Below, piece after piece: positions 11,681 to 60,300 of a DNA stretch of 64,000 bases. The notes beneath the pieces are model-generated. The model saw nothing but the letters and a program-made list of their open reading frames with translations, was not told the DNA's origin and ran no database searches. This DNA comes from Vicugna vicugna (taxonomy: Eukaryota). The position numbers were made by a program, and so were the translations under genes. The stretch lies in the NCBI GenBank assembly GCA_013265495.1, contig MU057744.1, positions 1,564,356 to 1,628,355 of the forward strand. Reading direction: 5' to 3'. Position 1 is the stretch's first letter, and the number at the start of each line of letters is the position of its first letter.

Positions 11681-13669
11681 CATACTGGAGTCAACTCCAG
11701 AGTCCTTCCCGTGGCCTACAAGGCCCTCTGGATCCAGTGTCCCTAAGTCTCTGCCCTCCTTCTTCCACTCACCCCCACCCCAGCATTTTGCTTTTCCTGG
11801 AGCTCACCAGACCCTTTTTCAGTGTGAGGTTTCAGAGTCTGCTGCCCTTCTCTGCCTGGAATATCCCACAGGCTCACTCAAGTTTGTCCTGATCTTTGTT
11901 TGGTGTCCTCTCCTTGGAGAGGCCGATTCTGACCAGCCTGTAATAGAAGCCCCTTCATTACTTTTCATTACTTTTGATACCCTCCACCCTGCCCTTCTGC
12001 AGTCCTGGCTCTTCTCAGTCTCTGATACGAAGCTTTATAACTATTCATGTGCCTATTATTTACCTCTTCCTTCAGTATAAGCTCCATGGATAGAGGAACT
12101 TGGTGGTGGTTGTGTCTGCAATGAGTGAATTTAATCCTTACAAAAATGGGAACGATAAAGTAGCAATCATTAATAATATTTTATACCCTGGGCACCCTTT
12201 CCCAGCAACTTTGTAGATACTATATTCCTGGTTAGTTTAATCCCTGGCAATAATCCTGTGAGGTTGGCAACCATCACAGTGACTAGTAAAAGGAGAACTG
12301 GGGAACTGGGATTGAAACTCTAAGTGAGTCTAGCCCCAAAGTGATGCTTTCCACTTAATTCATACAATTTAGTGTTACACATTATTAAATGATAGTTATG
12401 TACCCTGGATAAGCTATTCTTAATTATTATTACATAACTTATTATTATGTTACTTCTTATTACATAACTTACCATATTAATTATTATGTAACATTATCAC
12501 ATAACTCCCCTCTGATTGATGAAAACTCTGGGGACAAGGTGATTAGTGAAGTGCCCAGGACTACAGTGTTGCATGCAGGCTTCGGACCTGGCTTTCTGAT
12601 TGGGCTCCAGGGGCTCCTTCTGCACAGCACAAGACTTCTGTACCAGATGCGCTGTGTGTCTCACTTTCTCTGGGTAACTTTTATGTTTTCCACCTGTGAT
12701 GTTTGACCACTTGCAACCTGGCATTTGTGAGGTCAACTCTAAGCTTTTCAAAAGCTGGTCCTAATACTGGTGTCATGATTTTATTTCTTGCACAAAGTAA
12801 CCTTTTGCTGACCTTTAGCGCACTTGTGTTAAGCCGAGTGAAAACAACAGACAAGCTGAAGTTCACTGTTTCGCTTGTACTTAACTTTCTGTAGCGCACT
12901 GTACAACCTGGCTCTTCTGAGAGATAGTTTAATGCTTAGGGACAGTTTGCTGGCTTGTTGATTCATTCCCAGGTCAGAGAAACGCTCTCAGCTGAAATAT
13001 TGATGGATTGCAAGAAAAGTGAGGTAATTTCCTGAAAGCCTATAGAAATATGGAAGTTTTGGTGTCTGGTGCACTGGATGGTAATCTCCATTTTAATTAG
13101 AGAATTATGTTTATAATTAGCAAGAACAGACTTTAATAGTCTGTCAATTACAGAAATAAATTGGAGACTGAAATTGCAAACTCATATTTCACTGTGTTTT
13201 GCAAAAGCAGATCTGCGGATCTGTAGATAAATGTTATGTCCATACATTTTGAGCTATGAAACCCTTGCATAAGCATGGGAGATGATGCATCAAAACATCC
13301 CAGAAACAAGATTAAAATAGTTTCTATGAATGACATCCTTCCATGCACCTTGTTTTTGCTAAAAACTCCTTGGGTTTTATTCTCCCATGGGTGGTATACT
13401 ATTTGTCTGTCCCAATGGCTGTTATTTATCAAGTTTTTGATTAGTCTTAAAAGTTTATCCTTGTATTGTGCAGAGACAGGGAAAATACACTTAACCGGAG
13501 GTCATAGACTCCTATGTATAAGAGAGAGAAAGGGGGAAGGGGGGGCCTATATATATATAATACAAGACAGCATAGTGCCCTCAAGAGTCTGAAATTGCCT
13601 TATCTTGAAATAAAGAGATTTTTATACATAGATTCAGATCTTGAGGTTGCCTCTAAAATTACTTCTTTT

Positions 13670-14290
13670 ATTATGTTATTTTTTGTCAATAAATATTATT
13701 TTATAAATAATGTTATATATTACATACTATGTACAATATATTATAATTTATAACAATTATAATTTATAAATAATAAATTAATTTATATCAATAATTACCG
13801 TTTTATAAAAAATTATAATAATTATATAACAATACACTAAAATTAATAATAATTAAAATGTATAAGCAATGAATTATATTAATAAACATTATATTTATTA
13901 TTTTATTATTAATAAATATTATTTTATAAACAATTTATAATTATATTATATATAATAAAATTATATATTATAATTCATAAGTATAATTTATAAATAATAC
14001 AATTATATATTATATACTATGTATAATATATTGTAGTTCATAATGATTATGATTTATAAATAATAAATTATTTTATATCAATTACTGTTTTATAAAAATT
14101 TATACACTAAAATTAATAATTAAAATTTATAAGCAATTATTTTATATTAATAAACATTTATTTTATTAATAAATATTTTATAAATTTATAATTATAATAT
14201 TATGTATAATATATGGTATAATTCATAAGTGTAATGTATAAATAATACATGACTTTTATATTTATATAATATTATATTTGTTACTTTAAA
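13670..14290. repeat. Extremely AT-rich low-complexity block with a ~290-bp diverged internal tandem duplication
   Basis: tatatatta(c/t)atactatgta, tacactaaaattaataat and tataagcaat each recur about 265-290 nt apart. Confidence 0.85.
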
Positions 14291-15423
14291 ATTCCATCCT
14301 TTCCTGTCTTTTCATCATCCTTCCGTAACATACAATCTTTTCATTCGCCTTCCTTACAATGTTGTGCTAATTCATACACAGTTGCTTTCTCTTCAGGCCT
14401 TGCAGGTGGTCCGTGCCGGCCTGGCGTGGACCCTGGGGAATCTCCGGCTCCCTCCCCGTGGTCTCCGTCGTTGTGCAGAGAGGAGGAGGAGGACTCTGAA
14501 CGTTCTAGAATAGGCATGCAGCCTCAACCAGTAGATTGTGTATCATACATACATATAGTTATGCTCACTGTGGCTCTCGTCTGCTCTGCGCAGCTGCTAA
14601 ATATTTCACAGTTATATGAATAAGTACATCTCACTTTTCATAGAAGCATAGTATCTCAGAACAGTTTGTAGAGTAGGTGACGCTGGTGTAACGGCAGAAC
14701 GACTCCCAGCGGGCCCGCTCATCGCACCCCCGCCTTGGCCCCTCAGTCCTTTGTGCTGGCCTCCGGCCCGGCGGCAACGCTCCCTGGGCTCCTCCTTCAG
14801 CGGCTGTTCCGGTGGCTCTACTGCACGTGTAGGCGTGGGAGAGTCCGAGTAACAGCCTCATGCCCGGCACACGTATTAAGACGAATTTTAACCAACTCGT
14901 CGTTAATGCACGAAGCGACCTTCCGTGCCAGGTAGGAAATTCAGACCGTTTCCGGGCTGGGAGCATAGCCATAGGTGCTACGTGTGTTACTTTCTAAGTG
15001 GAAAAGAGAAAAAGATGCATTTCCGGTGAGGTTATTGTTGGTGACCGTATCTGTCAGCCTTAATCTCCGTCTCACAAGACAGCCTGTCTGAAAGATGTTC
15101 AGTCTTTCTAGGTCGGATTTTGTTCTTGCACGTCAGTTCTCTTATGACCAAGTCCAAACTGAATGCTTGATTTTTGTAAGCTGCTTTCCTTGTTCCGATT
15201 CTACATATGTGACCTCGTATGTTCTCTCCAAGCCATTTTAGGCTGTTCACATTTCTGTATCTTTTTTAAATGTCAATTAAAAAAAGTCACAGCTATTAAA
15301 ATTGTTCAAAAATTTACCTATTTTCAAGGATTTACAACATAAGAGTAAAGAAATTTTCTTCATGTCTTGATTCCTGGGATTGTATGTTTTTTTCTTCTTC
15401 ACTTATTATTAAGAAATACAGAA

Positions 15424-23256: not shown

Positions 23257-24285
23257 AACATTTTATTTGTCTTTGTCTGACTGACTTCACTTCGTATGAT
23301 AACCTCTAGGTCTATCCATGTTGCTGCAAATGGCATTATTTCATTCTTTTTTAGGGCTGAATAATATTGCATTTTTTTTTATGGGCTAGATTCCTTTATT
23401 CAAAGTGAAAAAAGTACAACGTTATAAATGAAGGCCGAGGACCAATAAAAATGTACAAATCCAAGTAGAACTCTCATAGGCTTAATGATGGTAAAAAAAT
23501 TATTTGCAAGGCTAACTCAGGAACCTGAACAGATACTATTTCATGGGGTTTACGTCACTGGAATGACAGACCACATTTACAGGGGTTTCCCTTTGAACTC
23601 CCAAATTGTCATAAGAAACCTACTCTTTCCCCTTGAGCTCAGGCACATCCAGTACCAGTGCTCTTCACTAGTGGCTTCCGTTTCTTCCTCTTCCAGTTGT
23701 TCCTTGGTCTCTGAGTCCAGCCTTCTCCGCATGACCTTCATGTGCAGTGGGTCCTCGGACAACTTAGTTCTGCGCTTGGCGGCCACACTGAGTCCCGCCT
23801 GGCGTTGCCACCAGGCCCATTGCGTGTGCGCCTGCAGTGTATACACACACCGCATCTTCTTTATCCAGTCAACTGTCCATTGACATTTCAGAGAAATGTC
23901 ATAGGATATCACTTACCTGTGGGATCTAAAAACAGATACAAATTTTATTTGCAAACCTGAGATAGACTCACGGACATAGAAAACAAACTTGTGGTTACCA
24001 AAGGGGAAAGGGGGGAAGGGATAAATAAGGAGTTTGGGATTAACAGATACAAAATACTGTATGTGAGATAGATAAACAACAAGGCCCTACTGTATAGCAC
24101 AAGGAACTATATTCTATTCCTTGTAATAACCTATAATGAAAAAGAATCTGAAAATATGTGTGTGTATATATGTGTATATATATGTGTGTATGTGTATAAC
24201 TGAATCGCTTTGCTGTACACCTGGAACTAACCTTATAAATCAACTATGCTTCAATAAAATAAAATAAATTAAAACATTTTATTTG
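23257..24285. mobile_element. 5'-inverted (twin-primed) L1 3' fragment carrying the MPHOSPH6 retrocopy
   Basis: Minus piece about 23265-23890 and plus piece about 23890-24272 meet at adjacent consensus positions (gacaaata / aaatgtcat). TSD aacattttatttg at 23257-23269 and 24273-24285. Confidence 0.85.
23372..23836 (-). pseudogene. MPHOSPH6: Processed pseudogene of MPHOSPH6 (MPP6 exosome cofactor), 5' part of the CDS only
   Basis: Minus strand reads (GTG)AAKRRTKLSEDPLHMKVMRRRLDSETKEQLEEEETEATSEEHWY, then after a frameshift DVPELKGKE, versus MPP6 MAAERKTKLSKNLLRMKFMQRGLDSETKKQLEEEEKKIISEEHWYLDLPELKEKE. ATG is mutated to GTG at 23786. AATAAA at 23400-23395, A-tail at about 23380-23372. Confidence 0.9.
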
Positions 24286-31289: not shown

Positions 31290-33810
31290 GAGACGGATCA
31301 AGGTGGAGGAGCGGGAGGGTATGGAGCTGGCCTCCCCCACAAACACACCAGAAACATATGTGGACTAGTTCTCGCTGAAAACGAACTGGAGACTGTCAGA
31401 GAGACTCCTGTACCACCAGGGTTGTAAGAAATATCCATGTGGAATCAGGTAGGAAGGGAAGAGAAGTGATCGGTTAGGACCTGTACCCTGGAGGGGTCTC
31501 GGAGGAGAAGGGAGGTTACACAGGCAGAGATGTGCCCTGGGGAGTGAGCGGCCAGAGCCTGGCACTGGGAGCCCCAGCCCAGGGCCCGACGCAGGGAAAG
31601 GGTCCCCTTGGCCAGTTGGAGGGCTGCTGGGACTGACAGGAGGGCTGAGGGGAGCCTGGACTTCGCTTGTGAGGAGCGTGCACATGCTGGCTTGCTCCTG
31701 AAGCAGGGTGGAGAGGGGACTGAGGGCCGCTCTGATGGCTGCCCGGTGCCCCTCACTGCCCAGGTACACACCACAGCCCGAGCCCCCAGAGCACTCCAGC
31801 CCCTCCCACTCTCAGCAAGTCCCCGCCGGGCGAGGGGCAGCAGACTGGGTGGCTTGAAGGGGCGTCTGTGGGCGGAGGGGCAGCCATCATGGAGCTCACA
31901 CCGGTGGTGCATCAGAAGCGGCCCACCTTGAAGGCGGCCAGACTGCCACAGCCTGTGCCCTGACACAGGCCAAGAGCACACGAGGGCCGCCTTGCAGTGC
32001 AGCTCGCACTGGCACGGGGCCTGCGAGGTGAAGGACGAGGTCAGCGGTGAGGGATGGAGGCGGCTCGGACACAGAGTGCTGTCCACGCAGAGCGGGGGCA
32101 GCCGTTACTGGCGCGTCCCCAGCCGAAGCTTCAGAAGCAGCCCAGACCTCGTCACAAGCTGAGAGCCCGCATGGGCCCCTCTTGCTCCGGCACTGCTCCC
32201 TCCAGGGTGAGAGCGCCGGTGTTGGAGGAGAGGGAGCACACATTATAGGGAACAGAGCCAGCTTGGACCCGACCCTCAGGGCTTCTGCTCCAGCAACTAG
32301 AGACCTGACCCCAACCTTATAGGGTGGTGACAGCGATGAGCGGAGGGGCAGCCCCGCCTCACACCTGGTCCTGGAACTGGCCCTGCCATCTACAGCCTCA
32401 CCTCCTACCAGGGTGACAGCTGCCAGCACACCCTGTGGAAGGACATGACTTATGTGCATGTCAAATCCAGCACTCCCACCAAAGCAGCTGGGTGCATGCA
32501 GTCTGTAGAGGGATGCTTTCACATAAGGGCCCCTGCTTGAGACCACAATTAGTAACTTGTTTCACCTAACTTCGTAGAGACAGAGAAAGTTAAGGAAAAT
32601 GAGAAGATAGAAGAACTGGTCTCAGCTGAAAGAGCAAGAGAATAACCTGAGAAATGAAGTCAAAATAAACAACTTACCAGATAAAGAACTCAAAACATTA
32701 CTAATAATGCTAACTGGATCAGAGGAAAGAATAGATGAACACAGTGAGAATTTTAACATGAAACTAGAAAATTAAAAAAATGACACAGGCCAAGAGCACA
32801 CGAGGGCCGCCTTGCAGTGCAGCTCGCACTGGCACGGGGCCTGCGAGGTGAAGGACGAGGTCAGCGGTGAGGGATGGAGGCGGCTCGGACACAGAGTGCT
32901 GTCCACGCAGAGCGGGGGCAGCCGTTACTGGCGCGTCCCCAGCCGAAGCTTCAGAAGCAGCCCAGACCTCGTCACAAGCTGAGAGCCCGCATGGGCCCCT
33001 CTTGCTCCGGCACTGCTCCCTCCAGGGTGAGAGCGCCGGTGTTGGAGGAGAGGGAGCACACATTATAGGGAACAGAGCCAGCTTGGACCCGACCCTCAGG
33101 GCTTCTGCTCCAGCAACTAGAGACCTGACCCCAACCTTATAGGGTGGTGACAGCGATGAGCGGAGGGGCAGCCCCGCCTCACACCTGGTCCTGGAACTGG
33201 CCCTGCCATCTACAGCCTCACCTCCTACCAGGGTGACAGCTGCCAGCACACCCTGCAGAAGAACATGACTTCTGTGCATGTCAAATCCAGCACTCCCACC
33301 AAAGCAGCTGGGCACACGCAGTCTGTAGAGGGATGCTTTCACATAAGGGCCCCTGCTTGAGACCACAATTAGTAACTTGTTTCACTTAATTTTGTACAGA
33401 CAGAGAAAGTTAAGCAAAACAAGAAGACAGAGGAACTGGTCTCAGCTGAAAGAACAAGAGAATAACCTGAGAAATGAAGTAGAAATAAACAATTTACCAG
33501 ATGAAGAATTCAAAACATTAGTAATAAGAATGCTAACTGAATTGGGGGAAAAGAATAGCTGAACACAGTGAGAATTTTAACATGAAACTAGAAAATATAA
33601 AAAAAAAAACCAGTTAGAACAGAAGAATACAATAAATAAAGTGAAAAAACACACTAGAAGGAATTAATAGACTAGATGATACACAAGAATGCGTAAGTGA
33701 TCTGGAAGATAGAATAATGAATTATTCAATCAGAACGTTAAAAAGAAGAACAAATTTGAAAATTAGAACAGTTTAAGAAATCTCTAATACAACATCAAAC
33801 ATATATATAC
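31290..33810 (+). mobile_element. L1 5' UTR and start of ORF1 (degenerate), with an internal 820-bp tandem duplication
   Basis: Starts gatcaaggtggaggag..ctcccccacaaacac (L1 5' end). GC-rich UTR followed by an ORF1-like peptide (QRNWSQLKEQENN..EINNLPDEEFKTLVIRMLTEL). Confidence 0.85.
31961..33600 (+). repeat. Direct tandem duplication, 2 x 820 bp
   Basis: tgacacaggccaagagcaca starts at both 31961 and 32781. The ORF track shows identical translations at an 820-nt offset. Confidence 0.97.
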
Positions 33811-34440
33811 CTGGGCATATAGCTGGAGGGAACTCTAATTTGAAAAGACACATGCACCCCTGTGTTCACAGCAGCACTATATACAATAGCCAAGTCATGG
33901 AAACAACCTAAATGTCCATCCACACATGACTGGATAAAGAAGCTGTGGTATATATATACACAATGGAATACTACTCAGCCATAAAAAAGAATGAAATAAT
34001 GTCATTTGCAACAACATGGATGGACCTGGAGATTACCATATTAATTGAAGTAAGTCAGAAAGAGAAAGACAAATATCATATGATATTGCTTATATGTGGA
34101 ATCTAAAAAAAAAATACAGAAATGAACTTATTTACAAAACAGAAACAGACTCACAGACATGGAAAACAAACTTATGGTTACCAGGGGGAGAAAAGGGGTG
34201 GGAAGGGATAAATTGGGAGTTCAAGATTTGCAGATACGAACTACTATATATAAAGTAGATAAACAGTAAGTTTCTACTGCAGAGCACAGGGAACTATATT
34301 CAATACCTTGCAGTAACCTATAATGAAAAAATATGAAAAGGAATATATGTATGTATATGTGTGACTGAAACATTATGCTGTACACCAGAAATTGATACAA
34401 CATTATAAACTGACTATAATTTTTAAAAAATGCTCAAAAA
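33808..34440 (+). mobile_element. Young L1 3' end (end of ORF2 plus 3' UTR)
   Basis: gacacatgcacccc..gcagcacta..atggaatactactcagccataaaaaagaatgaaataatg, ending in an A-rich tail. Confidence 0.9.
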
Positions 34441-34878: not shown

Positions 34879-37800
34879 TGATTAGTTCTTCGCAGGGGTT
34901 CTTGACTATCTAGCTGACTGGTGACATGGTGAACGTGAACTGTCCATTTTAACCATTTTTGTTCTGATCACGCTCCCTTATTCTTTGTTGGTTTAGTCTG
35001 AAAAAAATTGTATTTAGGGTGAGATACTGAAATGATTTATCAAGTGTAGAATAAAATAGCAGTTGAAGTCTAGCAAACCAATCTGAACTGGTTTTTCTAA
35101 GTTCCCTTATCTGTCCCTACTCAGATTACATAACGATTCCCCACTATGTCAGGTTTTTTCATATCTCTGTTTGCCTTGGTTCTCCCTGACTTTCAGATCC
35201 TTCCTTTGCTTTTCTGCCTGGTGAAATGCTGCTTGTTCTTCAAAGCCTGTCTCCAACAGTCCCTCTTCCGGGTTGTTTTTTCCACATGCCTTGTTGTTTT
35301 CCTCTCTGTTTTTCTTAAGTGATTTCTTCACACTCCTGTTATATTGCCCTCGGGCTTAATTCTGTGTAATACCCACACCAGCCCTCCCTGAGTCTGTCAG
35401 TATGTATCCTCCTGGATGCACACGCCTGCTTCTGAATTCTCTGAGGGACAGGGTACAGCTCCTTTATTTTCTTATCTCTTAGTACCAAGCGCTAGAAAGT
35501 GAATCATAAAATTTAATAGATTATTAAATTTGAAAGGGAACTATTAGTCTTAAGGCAATTTTATTTTTTATAATACAGACTTAATTTTCTATAACAACAA
35601 AGAGTCAAAACTGTAGATCTCAGTTGATGTTTAAAAGCTCTAAGCCTGGGTACAGATGTATTTCATGCAGATATATCTGAATTTGACATTCATTGGTAGA
35701 AAATGGATGATGGACTTTTTTTTTCCCCCTCAAATTGGTGTCTCCTGCATCTATTATAAAGTTGGGAGAACAGAATTGTTGTTGGCAGCGAATAGTCAGT
35801 CACTGTAAATTATATATGTGTTCCTGGAAATGATCCCAGAAGCATCTTAAGCTATAGAATCTTTTAATCAAATGCAAGACTTCATTTTTCAGAAGACTGT
35901 GTCATCCTCCTCGGGTGTTTATTCAGGCTGATCTCTGCCTGAAAGAGAGCGTTTCACAATTCCAGCATAGATTTTCTTGCAGAAAAAATAAACATTAAAT
36001 CTGATGATATGTTTAATTAGTTATTCATAATTCATAATTATGGATATTTACTGTGTACTCCTTCCATGAATAACTTATTTTTGTTTCTATATCTTATAAT
36101 TGAAAAGTTGGGCTTTGGCTGTTTGGAACTAGGCACTTCCAGAGAGACCCACCTTGTTATTATTAAAGGTTTAAGGAGAAATGAGAAGTTATTGGAGAGG
36201 CAGTTTTTAGTCTCTTTGAATCTCTGCATAAAAACAGCTACAACCATGGCAAAACCCAAAACCCACAGACAACCTAGTACCTAAAACAAACTAGGTGACA
36301 AGTTACCCCACGTCTGGTGTCAGCAGGTGTATAGGAGGAAGCAGAGGGAAGGCAGCGTGATTCCTGTTGTCTCTGAAATGGGTACCAGGCTCTCCCTAGA
36401 AAGCGTGGGGGGCTCACGTGAAAGCAGCTGCCACAGGCAGGGGGAGCAACGGTGCGGTGATGAGGATGGACGTTTCTGGAGCCACCTTAGCCTACGGGTT
36501 TTTTAAACTTACCAAATAAGGCTCTTTTTCCAACAAAGCCTCGCTTTGAGGAGAACTGCTGGGAGCCCAGTGCAGACTGAGCTGAGCTGATGCCGCAAAG
36601 GACGGAGCAGGACCAGGTAAAAGTCGGTGAGGGAAGCAGCCTGTAGGTGCCAGTCAGAAACGCCTTGTTTTGAGCAGAGCAAGTTGCTCTAGAGCCATGA
36701 AACTGCAAAAGCTGTGCTGACACCCTCCCTTCCTGAGGGCACAGGAAAGCTCGCCTCAGTTTCCATCTGTTTATCTGGCACGTCTTTATTGCCTGTGGAC
36801 AGAATTCTGCTCCTTATTTGCCTCTCTCTCTCTTTTTATTATATACACACAAAACAGTTATATATACATATATAATTACATATAATCATATATAATTTAT
36901 ATGTAATCACATATAACTTATAATCATGTACAATTTATATATACAAGTGGAGAAATCTAATTTACATTTATTTACATAATTATGTAGTTTTCCTTTATGT
37001 GCAATTTATGTATTTGTATGCCATTTTCTGTGTCCAAGAGAGAATAAGAAGCAGAATCATAGGCATTACAGGCCCAGCAGACTCACAACTGTTCAACCAG
37101 GGATTCAGAGCAACTGTGATTAAAATGGTAAAGGTTCCAGTGCGTGAGCCTGCAAGGACAGATGGGCGATGTAAGCAGAGAGATGGAGACTCTAGGTAAG
37201 GATGAAAAAGGAATGCTGGAGATCAAAAACACTGTAACAGGAATTATGAATGCCTTTGATGGGCCTATTAGTAAGTGGGACTTGGCTGAGCAAACAATTT
37301 CTGAGCTTGAGAGTATCTCAAAAGAAACCTGCAAAACGGAAAACAAAACAAGAGAAAAATGACTGAAAGAGAAACCAAAACAGAATAGAATATCCAAGAA
37401 CTATGGGACAAATAGAGCCATGAAGAAAGGAATATAAGAAATATTTGAAAGAGTGAAGACTGAGAATTTCTGCAAATGAGTGTCAGACACTTAGCCACAG
37501 ATCCAGGAAGTTCAGAGAACACTAAGCAGAATTAATGCAAAAAAAAAAAAACAAACCCAAAAAACCCTACACCTGGACATATCACTTTCAAGGTACAGAA
37601 AATGAAAGAAAAGTCATAAGAGAAGCTTGATGGAAAAAACCTTACCTACGGAGGAGCAAAGATAAAAATTACATCCAACTTCTGAAGACACCACTGCAAG
37701 CTAAGAGAGGCTGGAGTGAAATGCTTAGTGTTGAGATAGGAAAAAAAAAAAAACAATCAACCTAGAATTCTGTACCTTGCAAAATTATCCTTCTGAAGTG

Positions 37801-39493
37801 AAGGAGAAATAAACACTTTCTCAGACAAACAAAAATTCAGGGAATTATTTTGCTAGTCGAGTTGCCTTGCAAGAAATGTTAAAATAAGTTCTTCAGCAAG
37901 AAGGAAAATAAATAGGTCAGAACTTCTAATCTTTATTAAAGAAGGAAGAGCATCAGAGAGAGATTAAGTGAAAATTAAATAATTTTGTTGAAAGTAAGAA
38001 TAGCAATACAGTATTCAGGCATATATATTTATATAAATATTCATTTAATAATTTTCTAAACAGAAAGCACAAGGCCCAGATGAATTCACTGATGAATTCT
38101 ACCAAACATTTAAGGAAGACACCAAGCCAATTCTTTATAATCTTTTTCAGGTGAGAGAAGCAGAAAGAATACTTCCTAACTCATTTATAAGACCAACATT
38201 ACCATTATATGAAAACATGATAAAAACATTGCAAGAAGAAGAAAAGGTATAATCTCTCTTTAAGCATAGATATAAAAATCCTCAAGAAAATATTAGTAAG
38301 TAGAATCTAACTATGTATGAAAAGAATTATATGCTATGACCACATAGGATTTATTCCAGATACATAGTCTGGTTCAACATTCGAAAATCAATCAATGTAT
38401 CCTTCACATCAGTAGACAAAGAATCATATAGTATATTAATAGTTGCAGAAATTGTGTTTGACAAAATCCAACAGTCATTCGTGATTTAAAAACTTAGTAA
38501 ACTAAGAATAGATGGGAACTTTCTCAACTTGATAATGATTATCTATAGTAAACCTACAACTAACATACTTAATGGTGAGAAGCTTGAAGCTTTCCTGCAA
38601 AGATCAGGAACAAGCCAAGAATGTCCCCTCTCACCACTGCTTTTCAATGTTAGCTGGGAGTCCTAGCTATGCAATGAGACAAGAAAAGGAATCAAAGGTA
38701 TACAGAGGGGAAAAGAGAAATAAAACTGTCTTTGTTCCCAGGTGACATGATCATTTACATAGAAAATCTGAAAGAATCAACCAAAAAACTCCTAAAACTA
38801 ATAAGCAATTATTGCAAGATTTTAAGATACAAATTTAATAAGTAAAAGTTAGTTGTTTCCCTCTATACCAGCAATAAAGAAGTGGAATTTGAAATTAAAA
38901 ACACAATACCATTTATATTAACATGGGAAAGTGAACTACTTAGCTATAAATGTAATAAAATATTACAAGAGCTTTATGAGAAAAACTATAAAATTTTGAT
39001 GAAAGATATCAAAGAAAAATTAAACAGAGAGATATTCCATGTCCATGGATAGGAAGACTCAATACTGTCAAAATGTCAGTTCTTCCTGACTTGATCTGTA
39101 AACTCAGTGCAGTCCTATCAAAATCCCAGCTAGTTGTTTTGTGGATATTGACAAACATATTCTAAAGTTTACTTGGAGAGGGAAAGTACCCAGAATAGCT
39201 AACACAATATTGATGGAGAAGAACAAAGTTGGAAGACTGACTATTCGACTTAAAGACTTGCTATAAATCTACAGTAATCAAGACAATGTAGTATTGATGA
39301 AAGATTAGACCAACAGACTGATGAAGCAGAGCAGACAGCCTAGATACGGACCCACAAATGATCTTTGATAAAGGAGCAAATGCAACACAATGGACACTGT
39401 TTCCAAAATACAGAAAGAACTCTTAAAATTCAAATGTAAGAAAGCAACTTGGTTAAAAAACTCACCAGAGACCTTAATAGACACCGCAGGCTA

Positions 39494-40266
39494 TAGATGT
39501 TCCCTGCTGTCTGAAAGCAGACCATCCTTGTGCAAGTTGCCTTAAAGAGAAGAAGCAATTACCTTTGGAAGCATCTTGCTAACAGATGCACAAATTAAAT
39601 TGAGATAAAGCACAGATGCTCACAGACACAGTTCAGAGCTATGGCTACTTGATGCTGGGAAGTTGAGTACAGTGTCTGGGGAAGGAGCTTGACGGGGCCC
39701 CTCTTGTTTCTCAGGGGGTGGGCTGGATCTGTAATGGCTTGTTGCAGAACAAAAGCTGAATGCTTTTTCCTCTTTTTGCTTTTTTTATAAAAGTAAAAAT
39801 CCTCTTATTTCTTTTTTTTTGTATTCATGATTGTTATTTAATATCTTTTTTTAAATTGAAGTATAGTCACTTACAATGTGTGCATTTCTGGTGTACAGCA
39901 TAATGTCCCAGTCATGCGTATATATATGTACATTTGTTTTCATATTCTTTTTCATTAAAGGTTATTATAAGATATTGAATATAGTTCCCTGTGCTGTACA
40001 GAAGAAATCTGTTTTTATCTATTTTTATATATAGTGGTTAACATTTGCAAATCTCAAACTCCCAATTTATCCCTTCACGCCCCCTTTCCCTGGTAACCAT
40101 AAGATTGTTTATTATGTCTGTGAGTCTGTTTCTATTTTGTAGACGAGTTCATTAGTGTCCTGCTTTCTCTCCTGATTTCTTTTGATTAGCAAACCAGGTA
40201 CTAATGTAGCTCTTCTCTAAAAGCAAAGTGGCATAAAGCAGACTTTTGGAAAGCAGAAGATGCCTG
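39494..40266. mobile_element. MER82-like Tigger DNA transposon nested in L1M
   Basis: TA dinucleotides at both ends, degenerate inverted termini (tagatgttccctgctgtctgaaag / cttttggaaagcagaagatgcctg) and recalled MER82-like body. Confidence 0.65.
39830..40165 (-). mobile_element. Young L1 3' end nested in the MER82-like element
   Basis: ttgaagtatagtc..ctggtgtacagcat..gatattgaatatagttccctgtgc signature. Confidence 0.9.
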
Positions 40267-41239
40267 TATACAGATCACAGATAAGCATACAAAAAGCTGC
40301 TCCATATCATATGTCATTAGGGAAGTGCAAATTAAAACAGTAAGATATCGTTGCACCTATTAGAGTGGCCGAAATCCAGAACGCTGACACATAAAATGCT
40401 GGCAAGGTTGTGAAGTAACAGGAATTCTTATTCATCATTGATGGGAATGCAAATTAGTTCAGCCACTTTGGAAGGCAGTTTGGAGACTTATGAAACTCAG
40501 CATACTCTTACCATATGATTCAACCATCATGCTTCTTGGTATTTACCTAAAGGAGTTGAAAATTTAAATGTCCACACAAAAACTTGTAGTTGGATATTTA
40601 TAGCAGCTTTATTCATAATTGTCAGAACTTGGAAGCAACCAGCCCGTCCTTCAGTAGGGGAATGGGTAAGAAAACCGTGGTGTATATACATAGTGGAATA
40701 TTATTCAGTAGTCAAAAGAAGTGAACTATTGACCCATGGGAAGACATAGAAGGGACTGCAATGCTTATTGCTGAGTGAAAGAAGCCAATCTGAGAAGGCT
40801 GCATACTGTAGGATTCCACTATATGACATTCTGGAAAAGGCAAAACTAAGAAGGCAGCAGAAAGACCAATGATTGCCAGAGATTAGGGAGGAGGGATGAG
40901 TAGGGGGAGCAAGAAGGATTTTTAGGGCAAACTGTTCTGTATGATACTGTAATGATGGATGCATGACGTTATACATTTGTTACAACCCACAGAATGTAAA
41001 GTACCAAGAGTGAAAACTTTGGGTGGTTAGACTCGTCAGCGTAGTTTCATCTCGAATAACAAATGTACAGGCTGCTGGGGGATTGCATAGTGGGAGAGGT
41101 TTAGCATGTGTGAGGGCAGAGAGTATATGGGAAAATCTCTGTGCTTCCTATTCAAATTTGCTGTGAACCTAAATATGCCATAAAAATAGTGCATTTAAAT
41201 GAGAAGGCTAACAGAAGATCCTAGGCATAAGAGAATGTA

Positions 41240-44300: not shown

Positions 44301-46334
44301 ACATACACACATATGGAATGATTATTGTGCACACACATACACACATCCAAACACAACTTTACAGTAAGTTCGAAAGGGGACCAGTGATTGTCTTAGGCCA
44401 GTCATTTATCAACAGTCATGAAGAATCCCTAAAAAAGATTCATAAAAAATAGGATTCTTATTTAATGATCTTAGTCCTGCAAGCAGAATTTTCTGGTGTT
44501 ATTCTTTGTGAACTCAGGAGAGATACAGTAAGAAGATCTTTAAGCTTTGTTTCAGTCCAACACGTCAATGATTCTAAGACTGGTCCAAACCTACCATGCC
44601 TATAAAACAACACTGCTGATTTTTATCAGGCCTCCAAAAAGGTAGTTGAGCCTTGTAGATAGAATAATATCAAGAGTTCTTTCTGTTTCTTCTAAATTTC
44701 TGTGGCATCATTTTAATTAAAAGTCTTTCTTCCCATAATGGAACATGATAGAGCAGTATTTTATCGTCAGTGACTTCTAGTTTCAGGATATCATTCACCG
44801 TGATAAATAATGCATTGGCATATTAATGATGCATAATCGTTGTGATATTCCAGATGAAGCGCTCTTCTTCTTCAAGTGAGAATTTTTGAATAATAAAAAT
44901 GTCAGTGTGAGATAAATGTGGGATGATGTAAGAGTCACTTTGAAAATACAATTTATGAAAACTTTTAAATGTCAGGTACTTTCTCAGTGTTTTTCCTAAA
45001 AGTTAATTGAAGGAATAAAGCATAATTATAGGCAAATAAATATTGACATTATTGCTGTTCTGTTGTTCTATTTACTTTATTCACTGTGACTTTCACAGAA
45101 TTTTGGGCCAAAGGAAGGTAAAAGGGAGCCAGTGTGTTCGGGAAAGAACATGAATTATTAATAGCCATATTTGTTTCTCAAAATCCTCGTGTTTTAGTTA
45201 TGTAAGTCTTTTTTTTCCCAAAAACTTTAAGAGGAAAATGTAGTACATGTTAGGTGTGGCAGAAAAGAAGTAAGTAGCCTTATGATGTATGAATATCCAG
45301 TCTATGAAGATAATTGATTGCATGTGTAAAGTTCTGATAGAACACAAGAATTATAGGAAAATGTCTAACAATTTTTGGCATATTATTATATTGGCCAGAA
45401 TGGAACCATTTGTTAAATTATAACTTATAAGTTGCATGGAAATAATTCTTGGTGTTTTCAATGCACACTGATGCTGCTACCCAGTTAGGACAGGATGGCA
45501 ATTCAAAAAGATGAAGATGACATAATTGAAATCGCCAAAGGAGGAAGCATTTTATGGAATACTTTAATAATACAGCATCAATAAATTGTCTTATGAGCTA
45601 AAGACTCATTCTTGGAATATGTTAGAGATTTTTAAAAATTCTCATTGTAGTTAAAGATGAGCTTCTGATCAGTAGTTCTTGAAATGAAATGAAAACTTAA
45701 GAAAACACTGAACTCTTAGACTGAAAAACATTTGAATCTAAAATCTGAGAGAGATATCCATTAATTATAAGGTAGTTGGAACCAGTTGGAGAAAAACTTA
45801 CATGGAGTTCACCTCTCACACACATAGGTTTCCCTCAAACACTGTGGGAAGATTGACAGACACTTTAATCCACCCAGCCTCTCTGCCTCTGATGCAAGCA
45901 TGGGCTGTGCTAATAAGCTTTGTACCCTCTGCCATCCTGTGACATCTAAGACTCCCACCAAATGGTGTGGGTGCTGATAGGGAGGCAGGGAGCTGGGGAG
46001 GACCCACTGCATTCTGGATGCAGGGGAAGTAGTAAAGGCACATGCAGAGACAGGAACAGCATTGCAGAAGGAGAAGCTGCCAAGTTAGAAGATCAGAGCT
46101 GAATTAAATGGATGCCTGTAAAAAACTGAAAACTGCACACTACTTTCCTTTCTAGATCTGAGAGTGTCATTTTTTTTTAATTGAAGATAGTCAGTTACAG
46201 TGTGTCAGTCTCTGGTGTACAGCTTAATGTCCCAGTCATGCATATGTGTACATATATTCATTTTCATATTCATATTACACGATATTGAATATAGTTCCAT
46301 GTGCTATCCAGAAGAAATTTGTTTTTTTAATCTC

Positions 46335-47339
46335 TTTTTTTAAATTAATAAACTTAATTTTTTTAGAGCAGCTTCAGGTTCACAGCAGAATTGAGCAGAA
46401 AATACAGAGTTCGCACACAGCCCTCCCCACCCGCACATACATACTCACCTACCCTCAACATCCCTCATCAGCGTGGCATATTTGGTACAAGCGATGAACC
46501 CACATGGGCACGTTATTATCAACCGAAGTCCATAGTTTACATGAGGGTTCACTCTTGGTGTTGTACGTTCTATGGGTTTTGACAAATGCATAATGACATG
46601 TAGACACACTATAGTATCACACAGAATGGTTTAATCACCCTAAAAATCCCTTTTGCTCCGTCTATTCATTCCTTCCTCCCTCCCTCTCCCCAAACCCCTG
46701 GAAACCACGATCTTTTTATTGCTTCTGTAGCTGTGCCTCTTCCAGAATGTCATTTGGTTAGAACCATACAGTTTGTAGGCTTTTCAGACTGGCTTTTTTC
46801 ATTTAGTAATAGGTCTTTTAAGTTTCTTCCATGTCTTTCATGGCAGGCAGGTCTGGCCCAGTTTTTTACAAAATCACTGCCCTTGGACCTGGCACACGTG
46901 AGTTTTCGTGTACACTTCCTAAGCGAATGGAGTTTCCATTTTCCTGAGTCTCACAGGGCTCCTGGAGCCAAGCTGCACTGGCCTTCGAAACCAGATGTCC
47001 TGGGGTCTCCTCCTCTTCCCAATACAAGACGCAGGCTGGGGTGCTTGACGTGGGGCTTAGAGCTCTCCCTCCTGTGGGAGGGCCTCTGGGACTTCACAGA
47101 TCTTCAGCTTGTGGGTCGCCCCCCCCCCCGCCCAGGGGGCATGGGGCCTGATTATATGGTGAGCACACTCCTCCTACATTCCTGCTGTGGTTCCCTCTTT
47201 ATGTTTCCAGTTGCAGATCTTTTTTGCTAGGTTCTAGTCTTTTTTTCAATGGTTGTTTAGCATTCCATTGTGGTTTCGTTGTAGTCATGAGGAGAAGCGA
47301 GCTCGTGGGCCTACCACTCCGCCATCTTGACTGGAAATC
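46335..47339 (-). mobile_element. Non-autonomous ORF-less L1/HAL1-like element (L1 5' UTR plus L1MB/MC-type 3' end)
   Basis: Minus strand begins gatttccagtcAAGATGGCGgag (L1 5' terminus with YY1 site), then about 500 nt of 5' UTR, a junction at about 46843, about 500 nt of old-type 3' end and a short A-tail. Flanked by tttt(a)atctctttt duplications. Confidence 0.75.
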
Positions 47340-47504
47340 ATTTTTATCTCTTTTTATATATAGTGGTTAACATTTGCAAATCTCAGACTCCCAAATTATC
47401 CTTTCTGTCCCCTTTCCCCCGGTAACCATAAGATTGTTTACCTTGTCTGCGAGTCTATTTGTTTTATAGATGAGTTCATTAGTGTCTTCTTTTTCCTTTC
47501 TTTC

Positions 47505-47607
47505 TTTTTTTTTTTTTTTTTCTTTTTTTTTTTTTTTTTCTTTTTTTTTTTTTTTTTCTTTTTTTTTTTTTTTTTCTTTTTTTTTTTTTTTTTCTTTTTT
47601 TTTTTTT
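47505..47607. repeat. Periodic poly-T tract (T17C)n
   Basis: T-runs interrupted by a single C every 18 nt, inside the internal A-tract of the L1. Confidence 0.9.
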
Positions 47608-47698
47608 AGATTACACATATGAGTGATATCATATGATACTTTTCTTATTTAACCATCAATGGAAGGAACACATTGCAGCAGCTAATAGTTATCTAATA

Positions 47699-48025
47699 CA
47701 GGGGGTGTCATGCTTTTTCTGTAAAAAGCCAAATAGCAAATACTTTCAGCTTTGTGGGTAATACATTTTTTTTTAGAGCTAGTTACTCTTGAAACATTGT
47801 AGCATGAAAACAGCCATAACTAGTATGTAAACGAATGAGCATGGCTGCGTTCCAAAAACAGTGTATTTATGGACACTGAAATCTGAATTTCTTGATTTTT
47901 ATGTTTATAAAATATTCTTCTTATGATTTTTCCCAAGTATTAAAATATGTAAAAGGCACTCTTAGTTCATGTTGTACAGAAACAGGCAGTGGGCCAGATT
48001 TGGCCTGTGGACTATCCTGTGGTCT
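47699..48025. mobile_element. MER58-like hAT DNA transposon
   Basis: cagggggtgtc..tttttctgtaaaaagccaaatag..gggccagatttggcctgtgg. Confidence 0.7.
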
Positions 48026-49869: not shown

Positions 49870-50231
49870 AGGCAATCTGAAAAGGCTACCTACTGTAGGA
49901 TTCCAACTCTGACATTCTGGGAAAGGCAAAACTATGGAGACAGGAAAAACATCAGTGGTTGCCAGGTGTTACAGGGAAGGTGGGATGAAGAGGTGGAGTA
50001 CAGAGATTTTTAGGGCAGTGAAACTATTCTGTGTTTTGTTATAATGGTGGATACACATCATTGTACGTTTGGTGAAACGCATAGAAAGGACAGCACCAAG
50101 AGTGAACTCTAACGTAAGCTATGGGCTTTGGGTGGTAATAATAATGTTTCAGTGTAGGTGCACTGATTGTAGCAGATGTACCACTCTGGTGTGGAAGGCT
50201 CTGTGTGTATGTGTGCGTGTGCACGTGTGGG

Positions 50232-50270
<39 letters not shown>

Positions 50271-50350
50271 TAGGGGTATGTGGGAACTCTCTGTACTTTC
50301 CGCTCCATTTTGCTTTGAACCTAAAACTGTTCTAAAAAGTAAACTCTATT
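49870..50350 (+). mobile_element. L1MC-like 3' end containing a (GT)n microsatellite (about 50237-50268)
   Basis: ctgaaaaggctac..gacattctgggaaaggcaaaactatggagac..gaacctaaaactgttctaaaa. Confidence 0.8.
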
Positions 50351-55270: not shown

Positions 55271-56399
55271 AGACAGTTTTTTTTTTTTTGTCTTCCAAGA
55301 ATATAAAAATCTTTCTTGGAATCTTTATTCTCTAAATAAACTAGAAGACTATTTTGTGAGTTTAATAACGCACAAAGCCATTGGGTACTAAAATGTAAAT
55401 ACCACATACAGTTGAATTTCAGTGGTAACTCTATTTTGTTACTGCAAAAGTTGAGAAGTGCGTGATGAACATGGAAATAAAATCACACTTCTGGAGATAA
55501 TTTAACAGATGACATATTTGGGAAAAGTAAGGAATGTAAAAGGAACAAAGCAGTTGTCAAAAAACACAAACAGTAAAAGTCAAGATATAATTATAGTTCT
55601 ATTCCTTATGTGGGAGAAGAAAGGAAAATGAAACTAATAGAAAACTCCATCCCAGAAATACCTGAGAGGAGGAAGGAAACTAACATGTAAACAAAAGGAG
55701 GGAAACAACAAGAGAAGGTAAAGCTATGAAGCTGGTCCATAGATTTAAATAATTAGAGGGAGGGCTGGCAGTAATCTTTGTGCTCTACCCCAACAAACTG
55801 CAGGAACAGATAAGGCATAAACGCGGTGTGTTTTAACACCAGGTGATGACTTCTGTGAAAGTTAAAATCACCACCTGCCATTTCTATAACAGCCTACCTA
55901 CAGAAAAGTAAGGTAAAGGTGGGTATTAGGCTTCAAGACTTATAAAACCCAGTAAGACTAGGAATTTCAAACAATTTAAAAGCGTTTTTAGTAGAATCCC
56001 ATCAATTGGGAGCGTAAGGTACTGGTTTCATTCAGAGTAAGTCTGAAGCCATGTAGCCCCTCCTTGAATATCAACAAGCTCCATTTTGAAGTCTTTTTTT
56101 TTTTTTTAATATGTAGTGACTTTTAAAATTAAAAGAAAATTTTCAAAATTAAAGTATAGTCAGTTTACAATGCTGTGCTCGTTTCTGGTGTACAACACAG
56201 TGATTCGGTTTTACGTAGATATATTCTTTTTTATATTCCAATTTTGAAGTTTCTTAGTTTAAAAAAAGTATTCTGGAATTCCTGTTGAGAGTTTCACTGT
56301 GAGAGGGTATTCATAATACCTTGGAAGCCCTCAAGTATAAACTTCGTAGTTGGCTTCCTTTAAAAGGCCAGGAAAGAAACCATCTTTCTCTACATTCAC

Positions 56400-57250
56400 A
56401 TGTAACAGCGCTACTGCCGACGCGTTTGAGTCCTCCGCGCCTTCAGGAGAAAGGCGGGCCTTCCCTTAACCAATCAGACGAGTCCTCGCGGTCACCTGAC
56501 AGCAGACCCGCGTTCTCATTGGCGGACTCTGCCGCCGTCTGGCCGCCGGCGCGGTGCTCGTCTCAGATGTGGAAAGACCGAGAAGGCGCGTCCCGACCTG
56601 GGGAGCGCGCGGATTCTGACGGGACTGCCGCCCGCGCGGCCTGTGGGACTCGCAGTCTCTGGCAGTGTGGCCGCAGTCGTGGATACGCATTTTCCTCAGG
56701 TTAACGGTGAGGGCGGTGACGGGGCAGAGGCGAGGAGCGGTGGTCTGGGCTCTACAGATGTGGTGAGCGGAAGCGCCGCGGGGCCGCTGTGGCCGCGGCT
56801 TCGGTCCTCCTCACGCGTCTTGCGTCCTCCTCACCTGACTTCAATTCTCCTCACCCGTTTTCGGATCCTCTCCCCTGACTTCCGTCCTCCTCACCCGTCT
56901 TCTGGTCCCCTCTCCCGTCTCAGGATCCTCCTCCCCCGTCCCCCGTCCTCGGGTCCCCCCTCCCCCGTCTCCTGGTCCCCCTCTCCCCCGCCCCCGGGTC
57001 CCCGAGGGCGCGGCCTTCCTGGCCCGGGCCTGGCCGGCTTCGTTCCGCTGGCCCGGGGCCCGCGTCAGCCCCGGAGGAGGTGCGGCCGGCGCGCTCGGGG
57101 TGAGTGGGGCCAGCTTCTGTTCGGCGGACGGAGGGCGGTTTGGTAAGAGCACTGCGGGCTCGTTTTGTGTGGTGCGTGCGACTCTGAGGGACTGGTCAGC
57201 GCGGGCATGAGTGCCTCGGAGACGCTTCTCGTGGGCAAAATGGGCAACAC
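56400..57250. promoter_or_regulatory. CpG island with promoter-like architecture; host gene unidentified
   Basis: Dense CpG/GC in an AT-rich context. CCAAT at about 56470 and inverted ATTGG at about 56518. Several + strand GTGAG/GTAAG donor-like motifs (about 56708, 56764, 57100, 57142). C-rich tract at 56800-57000. Confidence 0.75.
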
Positions 57251-57347
57251 TTAAACAAGTGTTCCCTTTGAGTTCTTACAGTTCTGTTTTCGGTTGCCTG
57301 GATCTATGTAGGTTTCGCCCTCAGCTCGGAGTTCGTCGTAAATTCTG

Positions 57348-57349
<2 letters not shown>

Positions 57350-57382
<33 letters not shown>

Positions 57383-57396
57383 CTTTTTTTTTTTTA
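57350..57396. repeat. Long poly-T tract
   Basis: Read directly from the sequence. Confidence 0.95.
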
Positions 57397-60300
57397 TTCT
57401 GCTGGTGGAATTGAATTATCGTTGACCAGATTTTGCCCGCATGTGGCTTTCAGCAGGTGACCTGCTGGAGGGAAGAAGCTGAAGAGGGGAGCAAACTTAC
57501 CCTGTTTCAGGAGAGAAGAGGAAACATACAGGATTTGAGTCTTAAAAGGTTAAAAATAAGGACAAGGCATGCAGAATAAGATTATTAGGTTGGGGGATGG
57601 GCTTTGAACATGCAGCTTCTCTCAGAATTCTGCAGTAGAAAATTCTCAGGGCTGGAATGACACTTTTGGGATGATGGACTTCTGAGCCAGAAGAGATTTT
57701 CTAATGCACCGTAGATACTTCCCTCACCTCTAAGAGTTCAAAGTCATAAAGCAGTAGGGGCTGACTCTAAGTACAGTATTCCTGAGTGGTGAGTTACAAC
57801 GTCTGCTAATAAACAGTTTTATCCTTTGACATGTTCTGCTAAGTTTTTATTGTGGCTTGTGAATGTTTAGTGTCCTCCAGGGGGCTTTTAGGCGAATATG
57901 TTCTCACAGCACACGTGGTACCATTATACAGTGAGCCAACCTAATGGGTTTTAATTATGCTAAGGGCGGTGGACCTTGGCGCTGCTGACAAATTCATGTT
58001 TTTTACATTGCTGGGATGGAGAGCACAAACCAAAGGTTTCACCTGGAATCATGTCTGGAAAGTAGTTTCCTTTGCTATGATGCCACCTCTCAGTTTTGTT
58101 TCCCAAGTTGAAGAGTACAGGTGACTGGTGGCATTCACATCCACGTGGTGGAAACAGAGGAAGTGTTGCTCTTGACTTTGGGAGACCCAGATTCTAGGCG
58201 AGGATTTTCACTTCCTCTGTTGGGATTTGAACAAGTCACCTAACAAGAAGCACTTCATTTGCCTTGGCTGTAAAGTAGGGGAGAGCCATCCCATACAGGA
58301 GGCCTCCTGAGGATTACTGAGAGGTAGTAATAAGATGATACACGATCAGTGAATATTTGAGCGATCTCTTCCCTCCAGTAGGAGCTCTCTGCCTGGTTAG
58401 CAATCTGGTTACTTTAGCTAATGTTTTTCCCCTCTGGTTGCTGTCGTACTTGTTTAATTTTCTGCAATCCCTTAGTTTGTTAAGCACGGCTATCTGGGGT
58501 TCAGCTGTACTTCCTTTTGTATCCCAGTTGACATGTAGGTATGTGTTCATTTTGGTATTTGTCTGATCTGTTAGTTCTAAAAATGGGAGAGGCTTGAAGG
58601 ACACTCTTGTTGCTGACATATTGAGTGTGGCTCTGCTCCACTGTAAACTTTTCAGTGATCCTGTGTGTTCACTGACTCTCATGAATTGCTGGCAATTCAC
58701 AAAACAAAATGAGATCTTCAGTGCTGAGGTGGGCAAAGCACTTCTCTCCTAATTTTCCTGATAATGCTCCTACAGTTTGTTATTAGATAGTAGTTACAGT
58801 GCTGGTAGAGAGTGACTTGATATGCCAGCAGGGATACATGTGACTTTTCCACATTTTTGATAAATACTCATGCAGTTGCTAGAGAGACCCAGTTGTTGGA
58901 GAGACTCTTTCCATGCTGAAGACATAACGGCACCAGTGAAATCTGTTGAGTTTCCTGCCAATCCGTCTGAGGTGTAACCAGGTCTTTGTAACTGTTTTAT
59001 AATAATTGCAGTAAATTTAGTGGAAAACTAGAGCTCCTGGCACCGAGTAGTTACTCACTAACTTTGTAGTAACCAGCCAATTGCATCTGTTCTTTAAACA
59101 CCAGTAAATTGAATTAAATAATTAGCAGGTTAAAAAATTATAATATAATATTGTTTTATAATTATAAAGTTAAAATTTAAAAATTTAAAATATGTAATTA
59201 AAATTCTGCTTGGAGACTGAAAAAATACCTATTCTCCACCTTAGCCTCACTTGAGATCTTCCTCATTGAATCACTTCTCATCTCTGTAAGATGCACGGTT
59301 GCAAAAACTAGAATAGGTAGTTTCTTATGTTTTCATGAAAGGTGTAAATACTGTTTGTAGCATACTACCTGTTGAATTGAAGACAAAAAAGTTGTGAGGC
59401 ACAGAGTGCAGAAACTCCATTTAATAAAGATGGTAGAAAGGATTTTAATTCACTGAAAGAATTGGTAATCCAGTTAATTCCAGAGCTTTCCAAGTTAACG
59501 TGTTTTAAAATGTTAGGTAGTCCTCTTTACTAAAAATAGAGCTTCCAGTTACAACTAGAAATTTTGTTTAGTTTTTTTTCTGCCTTGGTATTAATAAATT
59601 CCTTAGTAATGAAGTTCATAAAACATAGGCTAGTCTGATGACTTTCGTATCTTTCCAATGACAAAAGTCAAAAGCAATCTAATTATTACTTTAGAGAAAG
59701 AGTTTCTCAAGAGATAAGATGCTCCTGATAAAACCAGTAGCCTCACCTGTTAAGGCCCATCCATCTAAAGAATGTCTTAAGCTAGAATGGAATTATCTAG
59801 TTGTTGGTAATGTTGTTATTCCATCCTTTGAAGCTGCCCTCTGAAAAACAAATTGTGACTCATACCATTGTAGCCCAGGCTTAATTTAATGGAAATATAA
59901 ATGTATTACTGCTTTATGGTTTTACTTGATTCATGAAATTTTGTGATAATTGGTAACACGTCTTTAAAAATACCAGGCCTCAAGCTTCTGCTCAAAAGCT
60001 TTTCTCTTATTTTACCAACTGATAAGTTTATCTGCTGTCAAGCTAGTAAATACAGAATTAAGAATCAGAAACTTTCATGTATTTGACTTTCCCTTATCAC
60101 CAATTTAATAGCTTAACATAACTTTTTGACGTGACAGAAAATGTGTCAGTGTGACTCGCAATTATGGTAAGAAATAGAAAAAGAGCATATCCTTTAACAG
60201 AGAGCTCCAGAAATTTGGATCCAGGTGCATTTATTACACTAACAGATTCTAAGTCTTGCTTAGAATCATGAACGTTAGTTGTGTTTGTTAACTGGTGTCC

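Follow-up and report, generated by a model that had tools for sequence, protein, structure and literature searches.

A hybrid of two L1 lineages, devoid of open reading frames, inserted into the 3' end of a less diverged L1 in the vicuña

The stretch of the vicuña (Vicugna vicugna) genome analyzed here, a window of 64,000 nt, harbors a 1,001-nt unit that consists of LINE 5' and 3' ends only, without any ORF. The unit occupies positions 46340-47340 of the minus strand and runs from 47340 to 46340. It is a hybrid of two L1 lineages, associating an L1A-type head with the tail of an older lineage that has a different 5' end, and a single insertion of the L1 type placed it within the 3' end of an L1 that was already there. 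For its origin we tentatively favor, at somewhat below even confidence, a dead copy, shortened by an internal deletion, of a chimeric L1 derivative that was itself non-autonomous, the 1-kb form being single or low in copy number and not propagating.

Results

Architecture of the unit

An initial sequence-only reading had assigned the unit to positions 46323..47354. An insertion is indeed present at this location, but the insert proper is limited to 46340-47340, flanked and composed as follows.

46170-46323, minus strand: distal half of the host L1 3' end with a short poly(A); 79% identical to 39846-40015, the nearest copy in the window being that at 39845.
46324-46339: left copy of the target-site duplication, with one extra A; exact core at 46330-46339.
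46340-46843, minus strand: tail, corresponding to the last ~500 nt of the 3' end of an old L1 and closing with a short A-rich sequence that has decayed; 67% identical to 40734-41197 and 49870-50350.
46843-46844, minus strand: head-tail junction, with a 2-nt GC microhomology deduced from back-read pseudo-protein frames and the pig consensus.
46844-47340, minus strand: head, the first ~497 nt of an L1A-type 5' UTR, from the 5' end to about the middle; similar to pig L1A1 and HAL1_SSc.
47320-47328, minus strand: YY1-type motif close to the 5' end, a 9-mer with which the pig L1A1 consensus also starts.
47341-47355: right copy of the target-site duplication.
47356-47646, minus strand: proximal half of the host L1 3' end, split by a poly-T/C array at ~47495-47607; 115 of 135 positions identical to the 39845 copy.

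Both ORFs are missing from the unit, in agreement with the initial description. Reading of all three sense frames of 46430-47341 across their stops revealed no Pfam family, and the sense strand of the unit contains no stop-free frame of more than 75 codons. ORF2 is absent, and no ORF1p coding sequence was found, the unit offering no space for an ORF1 of ~900 nt. Rfam provided no match within 46430-47700.

Insertion into a pre-existing L1

The host segments on both sides of the unit are collinear and overlap at the duplication only, 46171-46325 matching 39846-40015 (79%) and 47341-47495 matching 40012-40169 (85%). The claim that the two halves rejoin was therefore upheld by the collinearity check against the copy at 39845-40165. 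The host-type L1 3' end is present many times in the window, and both halves were nearest to the 39845 copy (110/138 and 115/135 identical positions for the left and right halves, respectively) when aligned with the other copies of the window (six for the left half and four for the right). The host extends past the poly-T array to 47646, positions 47600-47646 being 87% identical to 34066-34112. The array itself (~113 nt at 47495-47607, about 17 T plus C, period of 18) splits this half of the host L1; it could have arisen by microsatellite-like expansion or be an artefact of long-read sequencing. The host is a less diverged L1, as proposed, but the term 'young' was overstated since the identity to the nearest copy is 80-85%; a divergence of ~9% per copy would follow from equal decay of both copies.

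The predicted flanking duplication was recovered as 10 exact nucleotides (46330-46339 and 47346-47355); its length becomes 15 nt (47341-47355) when an additional A is tolerated in the left copy (46324-46339). At the cut, the sequence of the T-rich strand is TTTTT/AT (47351-47357), also in the uninterrupted copy, which is the geometry expected of the L1 endonuclease. In the place expected for a poly(A), there is only a short A-rich end, which merges with the duplication. Thus, a single insertion event of the L1 type brought the unit into an L1 3' end that was already in place. Since the insertion of the tail interrupts the less diverged L1, the old-type tail arrived after that L1 had inserted, and the earlier claim that a tail of this type was then still mobile is borne out.

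Two independent host insertions flanking an older relic were rejected since the two halves complement each other and join at the duplication. An assembly artefact was judged unlikely. Fourteen of 24 listed sequencing runs, from 7 studies, contain 0.54-0.65 of the words of the queried stretch, as assessed by word sharing and with the reservation that one run may be the source sample. Words located entirely outside the insert account for 0.415 of the stretch. The observed shares exceed what is attainable from the flanks; the runs therefore contain insert words, and the insert is probably not an assembly error. Word shares of 0.06-0.14 in RNA runs were given no weight.

The head resembles an L1A-type 5' UTR

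The head corresponds to a 5' UTR of the cetartiodactyl L1A type, of which it comprises the first ~500 nt. The consensus 5' UTRs of pig L1A1 and L1A6 (HAL1_SSc) are available in supplement file 1 of PMC6501411, and in the portion covered here, blocks collinear with the head were recognized by eye over the interval between the YY1-type motif and the junction. This comparison supports the proposed complete L1-type 5' end followed by about 500 nt of 5' UTR. The intact YY1 motif reported at 47328-47320 was also found, and this 9-mer occurs nowhere else in the window on either strand. A 23-nt pig motif had a single match in the window, at 47045-47067 with three mismatches, and none in 100 shuffles. 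In addition, a dromedary hypothetical protein (P0001) is in effect an antisense translation of the head sequence type, and its alignment begins at residue 81 of the junction-crossing frame, which corresponds exactly to 46844.

The 5' UTR of pig HAL1 has a length of 944 nt in the part of PMC6501411 used, indicating that the head corresponds to only about the first half of such a region; the by-eye collinearity with an L1-type 5' UTR is accordingly limited to that half. CpG content, considered as a sign of youth, gave no signal (observed/expected ratios of 0.34 for the head, 0.44 for the tail, and 0.38 for the window). A putative promoter in the head may have been working when the unit inserted, but a working promoter is unlikely today.

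The tail resembles an older L1 lineage

The tail is 67% identical to two old 3' ends of the window (40734-41197 and 49870-50350), and we take it to be L1MC1-like. A three-way comparison over 331 columns gave a branch length of 0.19 for the tail versus 0.22 and 0.16 for the 40734-41197 and 49870-50350 copies, respectively. The latter copy (plus strand) is an old tail of the same type that is truncated at its 5' end and contains an internal GT microsatellite; it served for comparison.

The former copy belongs to a decayed native old L1 (~36200-41197, plus strand) comprising a 5' region, an ORF1, a partial ORF2, and the same type of tail. Its ORF1 domain was identified by Pfam (PF17490, E 7.6e-11), and ORF2-like remnants were recognized by eye. 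A weak Piwi_N match at 37132-37359 falls in this ORF1 region and is probably spurious. The copy at 39845-40165 is a host-type L1 inserted in antisense orientation inside the native old L1, which is the usual order. The 5' region of the native old L1 did not align with the head (score of 36 versus a mean of 25.7 and a maximum of 42 in 100 shuffles). Because this L1 combines the same tail with a 5' region unrelated to the head, the unit joins two lineages. A simple deletion of the native old L1 is disfavored on the same ground, in the one copy present in the window.

In the covered part of the PMC6501411 supplement, the pig HAL1_SSc file contained no match to two tail motifs; pig HAL1_SSc has the same head as the unit, but its end resembles, by eye, that of the host-type L1.

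The junction deviates from an exact splice

Homology to old L1 3' ends stops at 46843 and homology to the dromedary sequence begins at 46844, in accordance with the junction initially placed at about 46843. A phmmer search with a 208-residue frame crossing the junction returned 593 hits, and the best 150 of these were examined: 134 covered the tail only, 16 covered the head only, and none covered both halves. The fused peptide was likewise absent, in any of the three frames, from the best 150 of the 593 pseudo-protein hits, in which loose patterns of the parent type were found 4, 2, and 6 times.

Beyond the junction, the tail hits among these best 150 of 593 displayed W-L in 58 of 75 informative cases, with D as the next residue in 44. 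Back-reading of three overlapping pseudo-protein frames of the tail (W-L-D, M-A-stop, and H-G-L) places AG immediately before the tail in the donor lineage, i.e., an acceptor exactly at the junction, as had been proposed for the native donor. In contrast, the suggestion that the junction is an exact splice product did not survive the GT/AG comparison. In the parents compared, dromedary and pig, no GT donor is found exactly at the junction: according to the head hits and the pig consensus, three further bases precede the GT, and in the one dromedary parent, the junction is followed by a pyrimidine-T-G codon instead of GT (residues N-Q-Q-A-G). The GT located 3 nt from the junction in the parent leaves a 2-nt GC microhomology and no exact splice. 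On the acceptor side, the sequence before the AG is purine-rich, with 40% pyrimidine and no pyrimidine tract over 40 nt of one in-window copy of the tail, in which the AG itself has been lost. Neither the microhomology nor the near-splice fit is a strong signal, since at least two shared bases arise by chance at ~16% of junctions and the acceptor is devoid of a pyrimidine tract.

Search for additional copies

No second copy of the junction was found in the 64-kb window. Three indexed protein searches provided 1, 0, and 0 hits and no second copy, the single dromedary hit carrying an unfused head. Contig scans of microbial collections provided no match, plus 19 chance loci, none of which had a BLAST hit to the unit. 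These searches have low power: the contig collections are microbial and their scans say little, the best tail hits have 57% amino-acid identity, and a name is attached to only 1 of 20 hits looked up, so that camelid copies are scarce in the library.

Part of a dromedary RepeatMasker table (supplement 5 of PMC6675863) was also analyzed by counting 130 of the 274 rows bearing the label L1MC1, which is the label assumed above for the tail. Three of these 130 rows had a length of 480-530 nt, compared with 2-6 rows in the neighboring 50-nt bins. Their lengths (502, 506, and 509 nt) are to be compared with the 504 nt of the tail. Another L1MC1 piece lies 176 nt away from one of these rows, and one row is bordered on one side by 1.2 kb free of annotation; no L1 head is annotated next to the 509-nt row. 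The absence of a pile-up of ~500-nt rows in the part counted argues against thousands of copies but not against a few hundred. The search for a host gene fixing the orthologous dromedary locus yielded none among 150 of 165 long frames, with two sub-threshold Pfam matches.

The first sixth of the camelid Repbase table contains L1-1_Vpa and L1-2_Vpa and no name matching the unit. No such element is described in the covered parts of three articles on camelid transposable elements (PMC8605555, PMC6675863, and PMC6726744; the library supplements of the first lay outside the scope), and the covered parts of PMC3183009, PMC4072516, PMC3342881, and PMC13756887 contain nothing specific to such a unit. 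More generally, the literature within a scope that excluded most subscription papers and Repbase Reports describes no such camelid element. The unit may already be catalogued in Repbase, Dfam, or camelid repeat libraries.

Other features of the window

Two 300-nt copies (31961-32260 and 32781-33080), 100% identical and 820 nt apart in a GC-rich stretch, represent either a recent tandem duplication or an assembly duplication. A sub-threshold Pfam match to MPP6 at 23580-23912 (minus strand, E 0.00028, N-terminal 42 positions) might come from an exon of MPHOSPH6 or from a fragment of a retrocopy of this gene. Positions 56000-57500 contain a CpG island (observed/expected of 0.8-1.0); a 20-nt tandem array (56780-56939) and a long poly-T (~57343-57398) are located in the same segment. 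Very AT-rich degenerate repeats (13650-14290, GC content down to 17%) lie beside a CpG-rich patch (14000-15000).

Discussion

According to the internal deletion that we tentatively favor, the head-tail hybrid would first have existed as an ORF1-only half-L1 (HAL1), which would have kept the old tail mobile by borrowing ORF2p in trans. The middle of this precursor (the rest of the 5' UTR, ORF1, and the spacer) would have been lost at the 2-nt microhomology, either by a skip of the reverse transcriptase during insertion or by a later genomic deletion, and the resulting 1-kb form would be present as a single or low copy without propagation. This reading is based on the nesting, the duplication, and the endonuclease-type site; on the homology of the head to pig L1A1/HAL1_SSc along its whole length; on the native old L1, which has an ORF1 and the same tail behind a 5' region that does not align to the head; and on the lack of a second junction copy among the best 150 of 593 hits, the dromedary hit with an unfused head, and the lack of an excess of ~500-nt rows among 130 of 274 dromedary L1MC1 rows. 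Several observations argue against it. The HAL1 precursor was not seen in this analysis, and the pig HAL1_SSc end is host-type by eye, with no match to the tail motifs. The negative searches are weak (best tail identity of 57%, few camelid copies), and the 502-, 506-, and 509-nt rows are close to the length of the tail (504 nt). Finally, a random deletion does not explain why the tail starts right after an AG.

The sequence-only reading had concluded, from the mobility of the old tail, that the unit was an ORF-less parasite mobilized in trans. This inference fails since a longer precursor explains the mobility equally well. Membership of a true ORF-less bipartite family, generated by one deletion and then distributed in trans over tens or a few hundred sites after transcription from half of a 5' UTR, is nonetheless a possibility to be reckoned with, albeit an unlikely one. 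The unit has a complete 5' end with a YY1 motif, a complete 3' end, and one duplication, and a family member would be likelier than a one-off to turn up in a random window. Three of the 130 L1MC1 rows fall at 502-509 nt, compared with ~0.8 expected per 10-nt band according to a hand count with a band chosen post hoc in this part of the table. Against such a family, no second copy was found in the window, among the best 150 of 593 pseudo-proteins, in the indexed protein searches, or in the contig scans; the lack of a pile-up in 50-nt bins speaks against thousands of copies only.

If there was no HAL1 precursor, a one-off template switch would be needed. Reverse transcription would have started on an RNA ending in an old tail and continued, by switching or ligation, on the 5' half of an L1A-type 5' UTR, a scenario that we consider doubtful. 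Both parts have the same orientation, with a full 5' end, one duplication, and a 2-nt microhomology, and the divergence of the tail matches that of the two dead copies (0.19 versus 0.22 and 0.16). Mechanisms of this type are presented for U6/L1 and Alu/L1 chimeras in the covered part of bioRxiv 10.1101/2025.02.02.635956. However, a dead tail would have to be transcribed, to end at its own 3' end, and to be used as the first template, and a 2-nt microhomology is found by chance in ~16% of junctions. Equally hard to credit is retrotransposition, perhaps repeated and each time a dead end, of a SpIRE-like RNA spliced from a donor in the middle of the 5' UTR to the AG preceding the tail: the AG is directly before the tail in the donor lineage, the head parent has a GT 3 nt downstream from the junction, and the fit would become exact with slippage by 3 nt in a CTG repeat or with a camelid variant of the head devoid of these bases, but the fit is inexact in the parents compared, the dromedary parent has a pyrimidine-T-G codon after the junction, and the acceptor lacks a pyrimidine tract (40% in 40 nt of an in-window copy that has also lost the AG).

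On present evidence, the unit is not a HAL1, having no ORF1, nor a SpIRE, having an inexact donor, and is built like a bipartite ORF-absent LINE. The comparisons below are based on the covered parts of the articles cited. HAL1 (half-L1, defined in PMC5753468), exemplified by pig L1A6/HAL1_SSc (PMC6501411), resembles the unit by the type of head, the non-autonomous status, the absence of ORF2, and the logic of internal deletion. In contrast, HAL1 retains ORF1 and the whole 5' UTR (906 and 944 nt, respectively, in the pig HAL1 table of PMC6501411), whereas the unit has no ORF1, retains only the first half of the UTR, and ends in a tail whose type differs from that of the pig HAL1 end. Non-autonomous LINEs of the bipartite ORF-absent kind (RIME, NARTc, Bov-A, RTESINE, and R2-derived elements; PMC5786205) also consist of LINE 5' and 3' ends only, with a conserved 5' end and presumed Pol II transcription, but they are multi-copy families and both ends come from one parent, whereas the unit is at most a putative family member and its ends come from two lineages.

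SpIREs (PMC5860796) derive, like the unit, from retrotransposition of an L1 RNA that is intact at its 5' end but has lost internal sequence, and are described as dead ends. They have exact donor-acceptor junctions in the 5' UTR or between the 5' UTR and ORF1, the rest of the L1 being kept, whereas the junction of the unit misses an exact splice by 3 nt and neither ORF is retained. Gibbon LAVA (PMC5174737) also contains an ancient L1 fragment (L1ME5) in a much younger element mobilized in trans by L1. The L1 piece of LAVA is antisense and joined to an SVA head, whereas the old tail of the unit has the sense orientation and forms its 3' end, following an L1 5' UTR. The U6/L1 and Alu/L1 chimeras (10.1101/2025.02.02.635956) combine, as does the unit, a 5' module with an L1 3' end in the same sense and one duplication; the 5' module of the unit differs in being a truncated L1 5' UTR and its 3' part in belonging to an old lineage.

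As a lone copy, the unit is a clear but ordinary scar. An old-looking L1 tail can be part of a later insertion, and this misleads the dating of repeats, whether from nesting or from the subfamily assigned. That camelids harbor a family of bipartite elements of the L1 clade without ORFs, in which an L1A-type promoter half is fused to a revived ancient L1 tail, and which was stripped down from a HAL1, kept a Pol II start of its own, and was propagated in trans, is a minority prospect. If true, it would be new with respect to PMC5786205 (2018), whose covered part names as sources the RTE, Ingi, Vingi, and R2 clades only, without L1, and it would extend ORF-absent bipartite LINEs to the L1 clade. 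Such elements would be parasites of a parasite, ORF1p in cis would be dispensable for amplification of RNAs made from an L1 promoter, and the family would provide a natural test of the need of HAL1-type elements for their own ORF1p.
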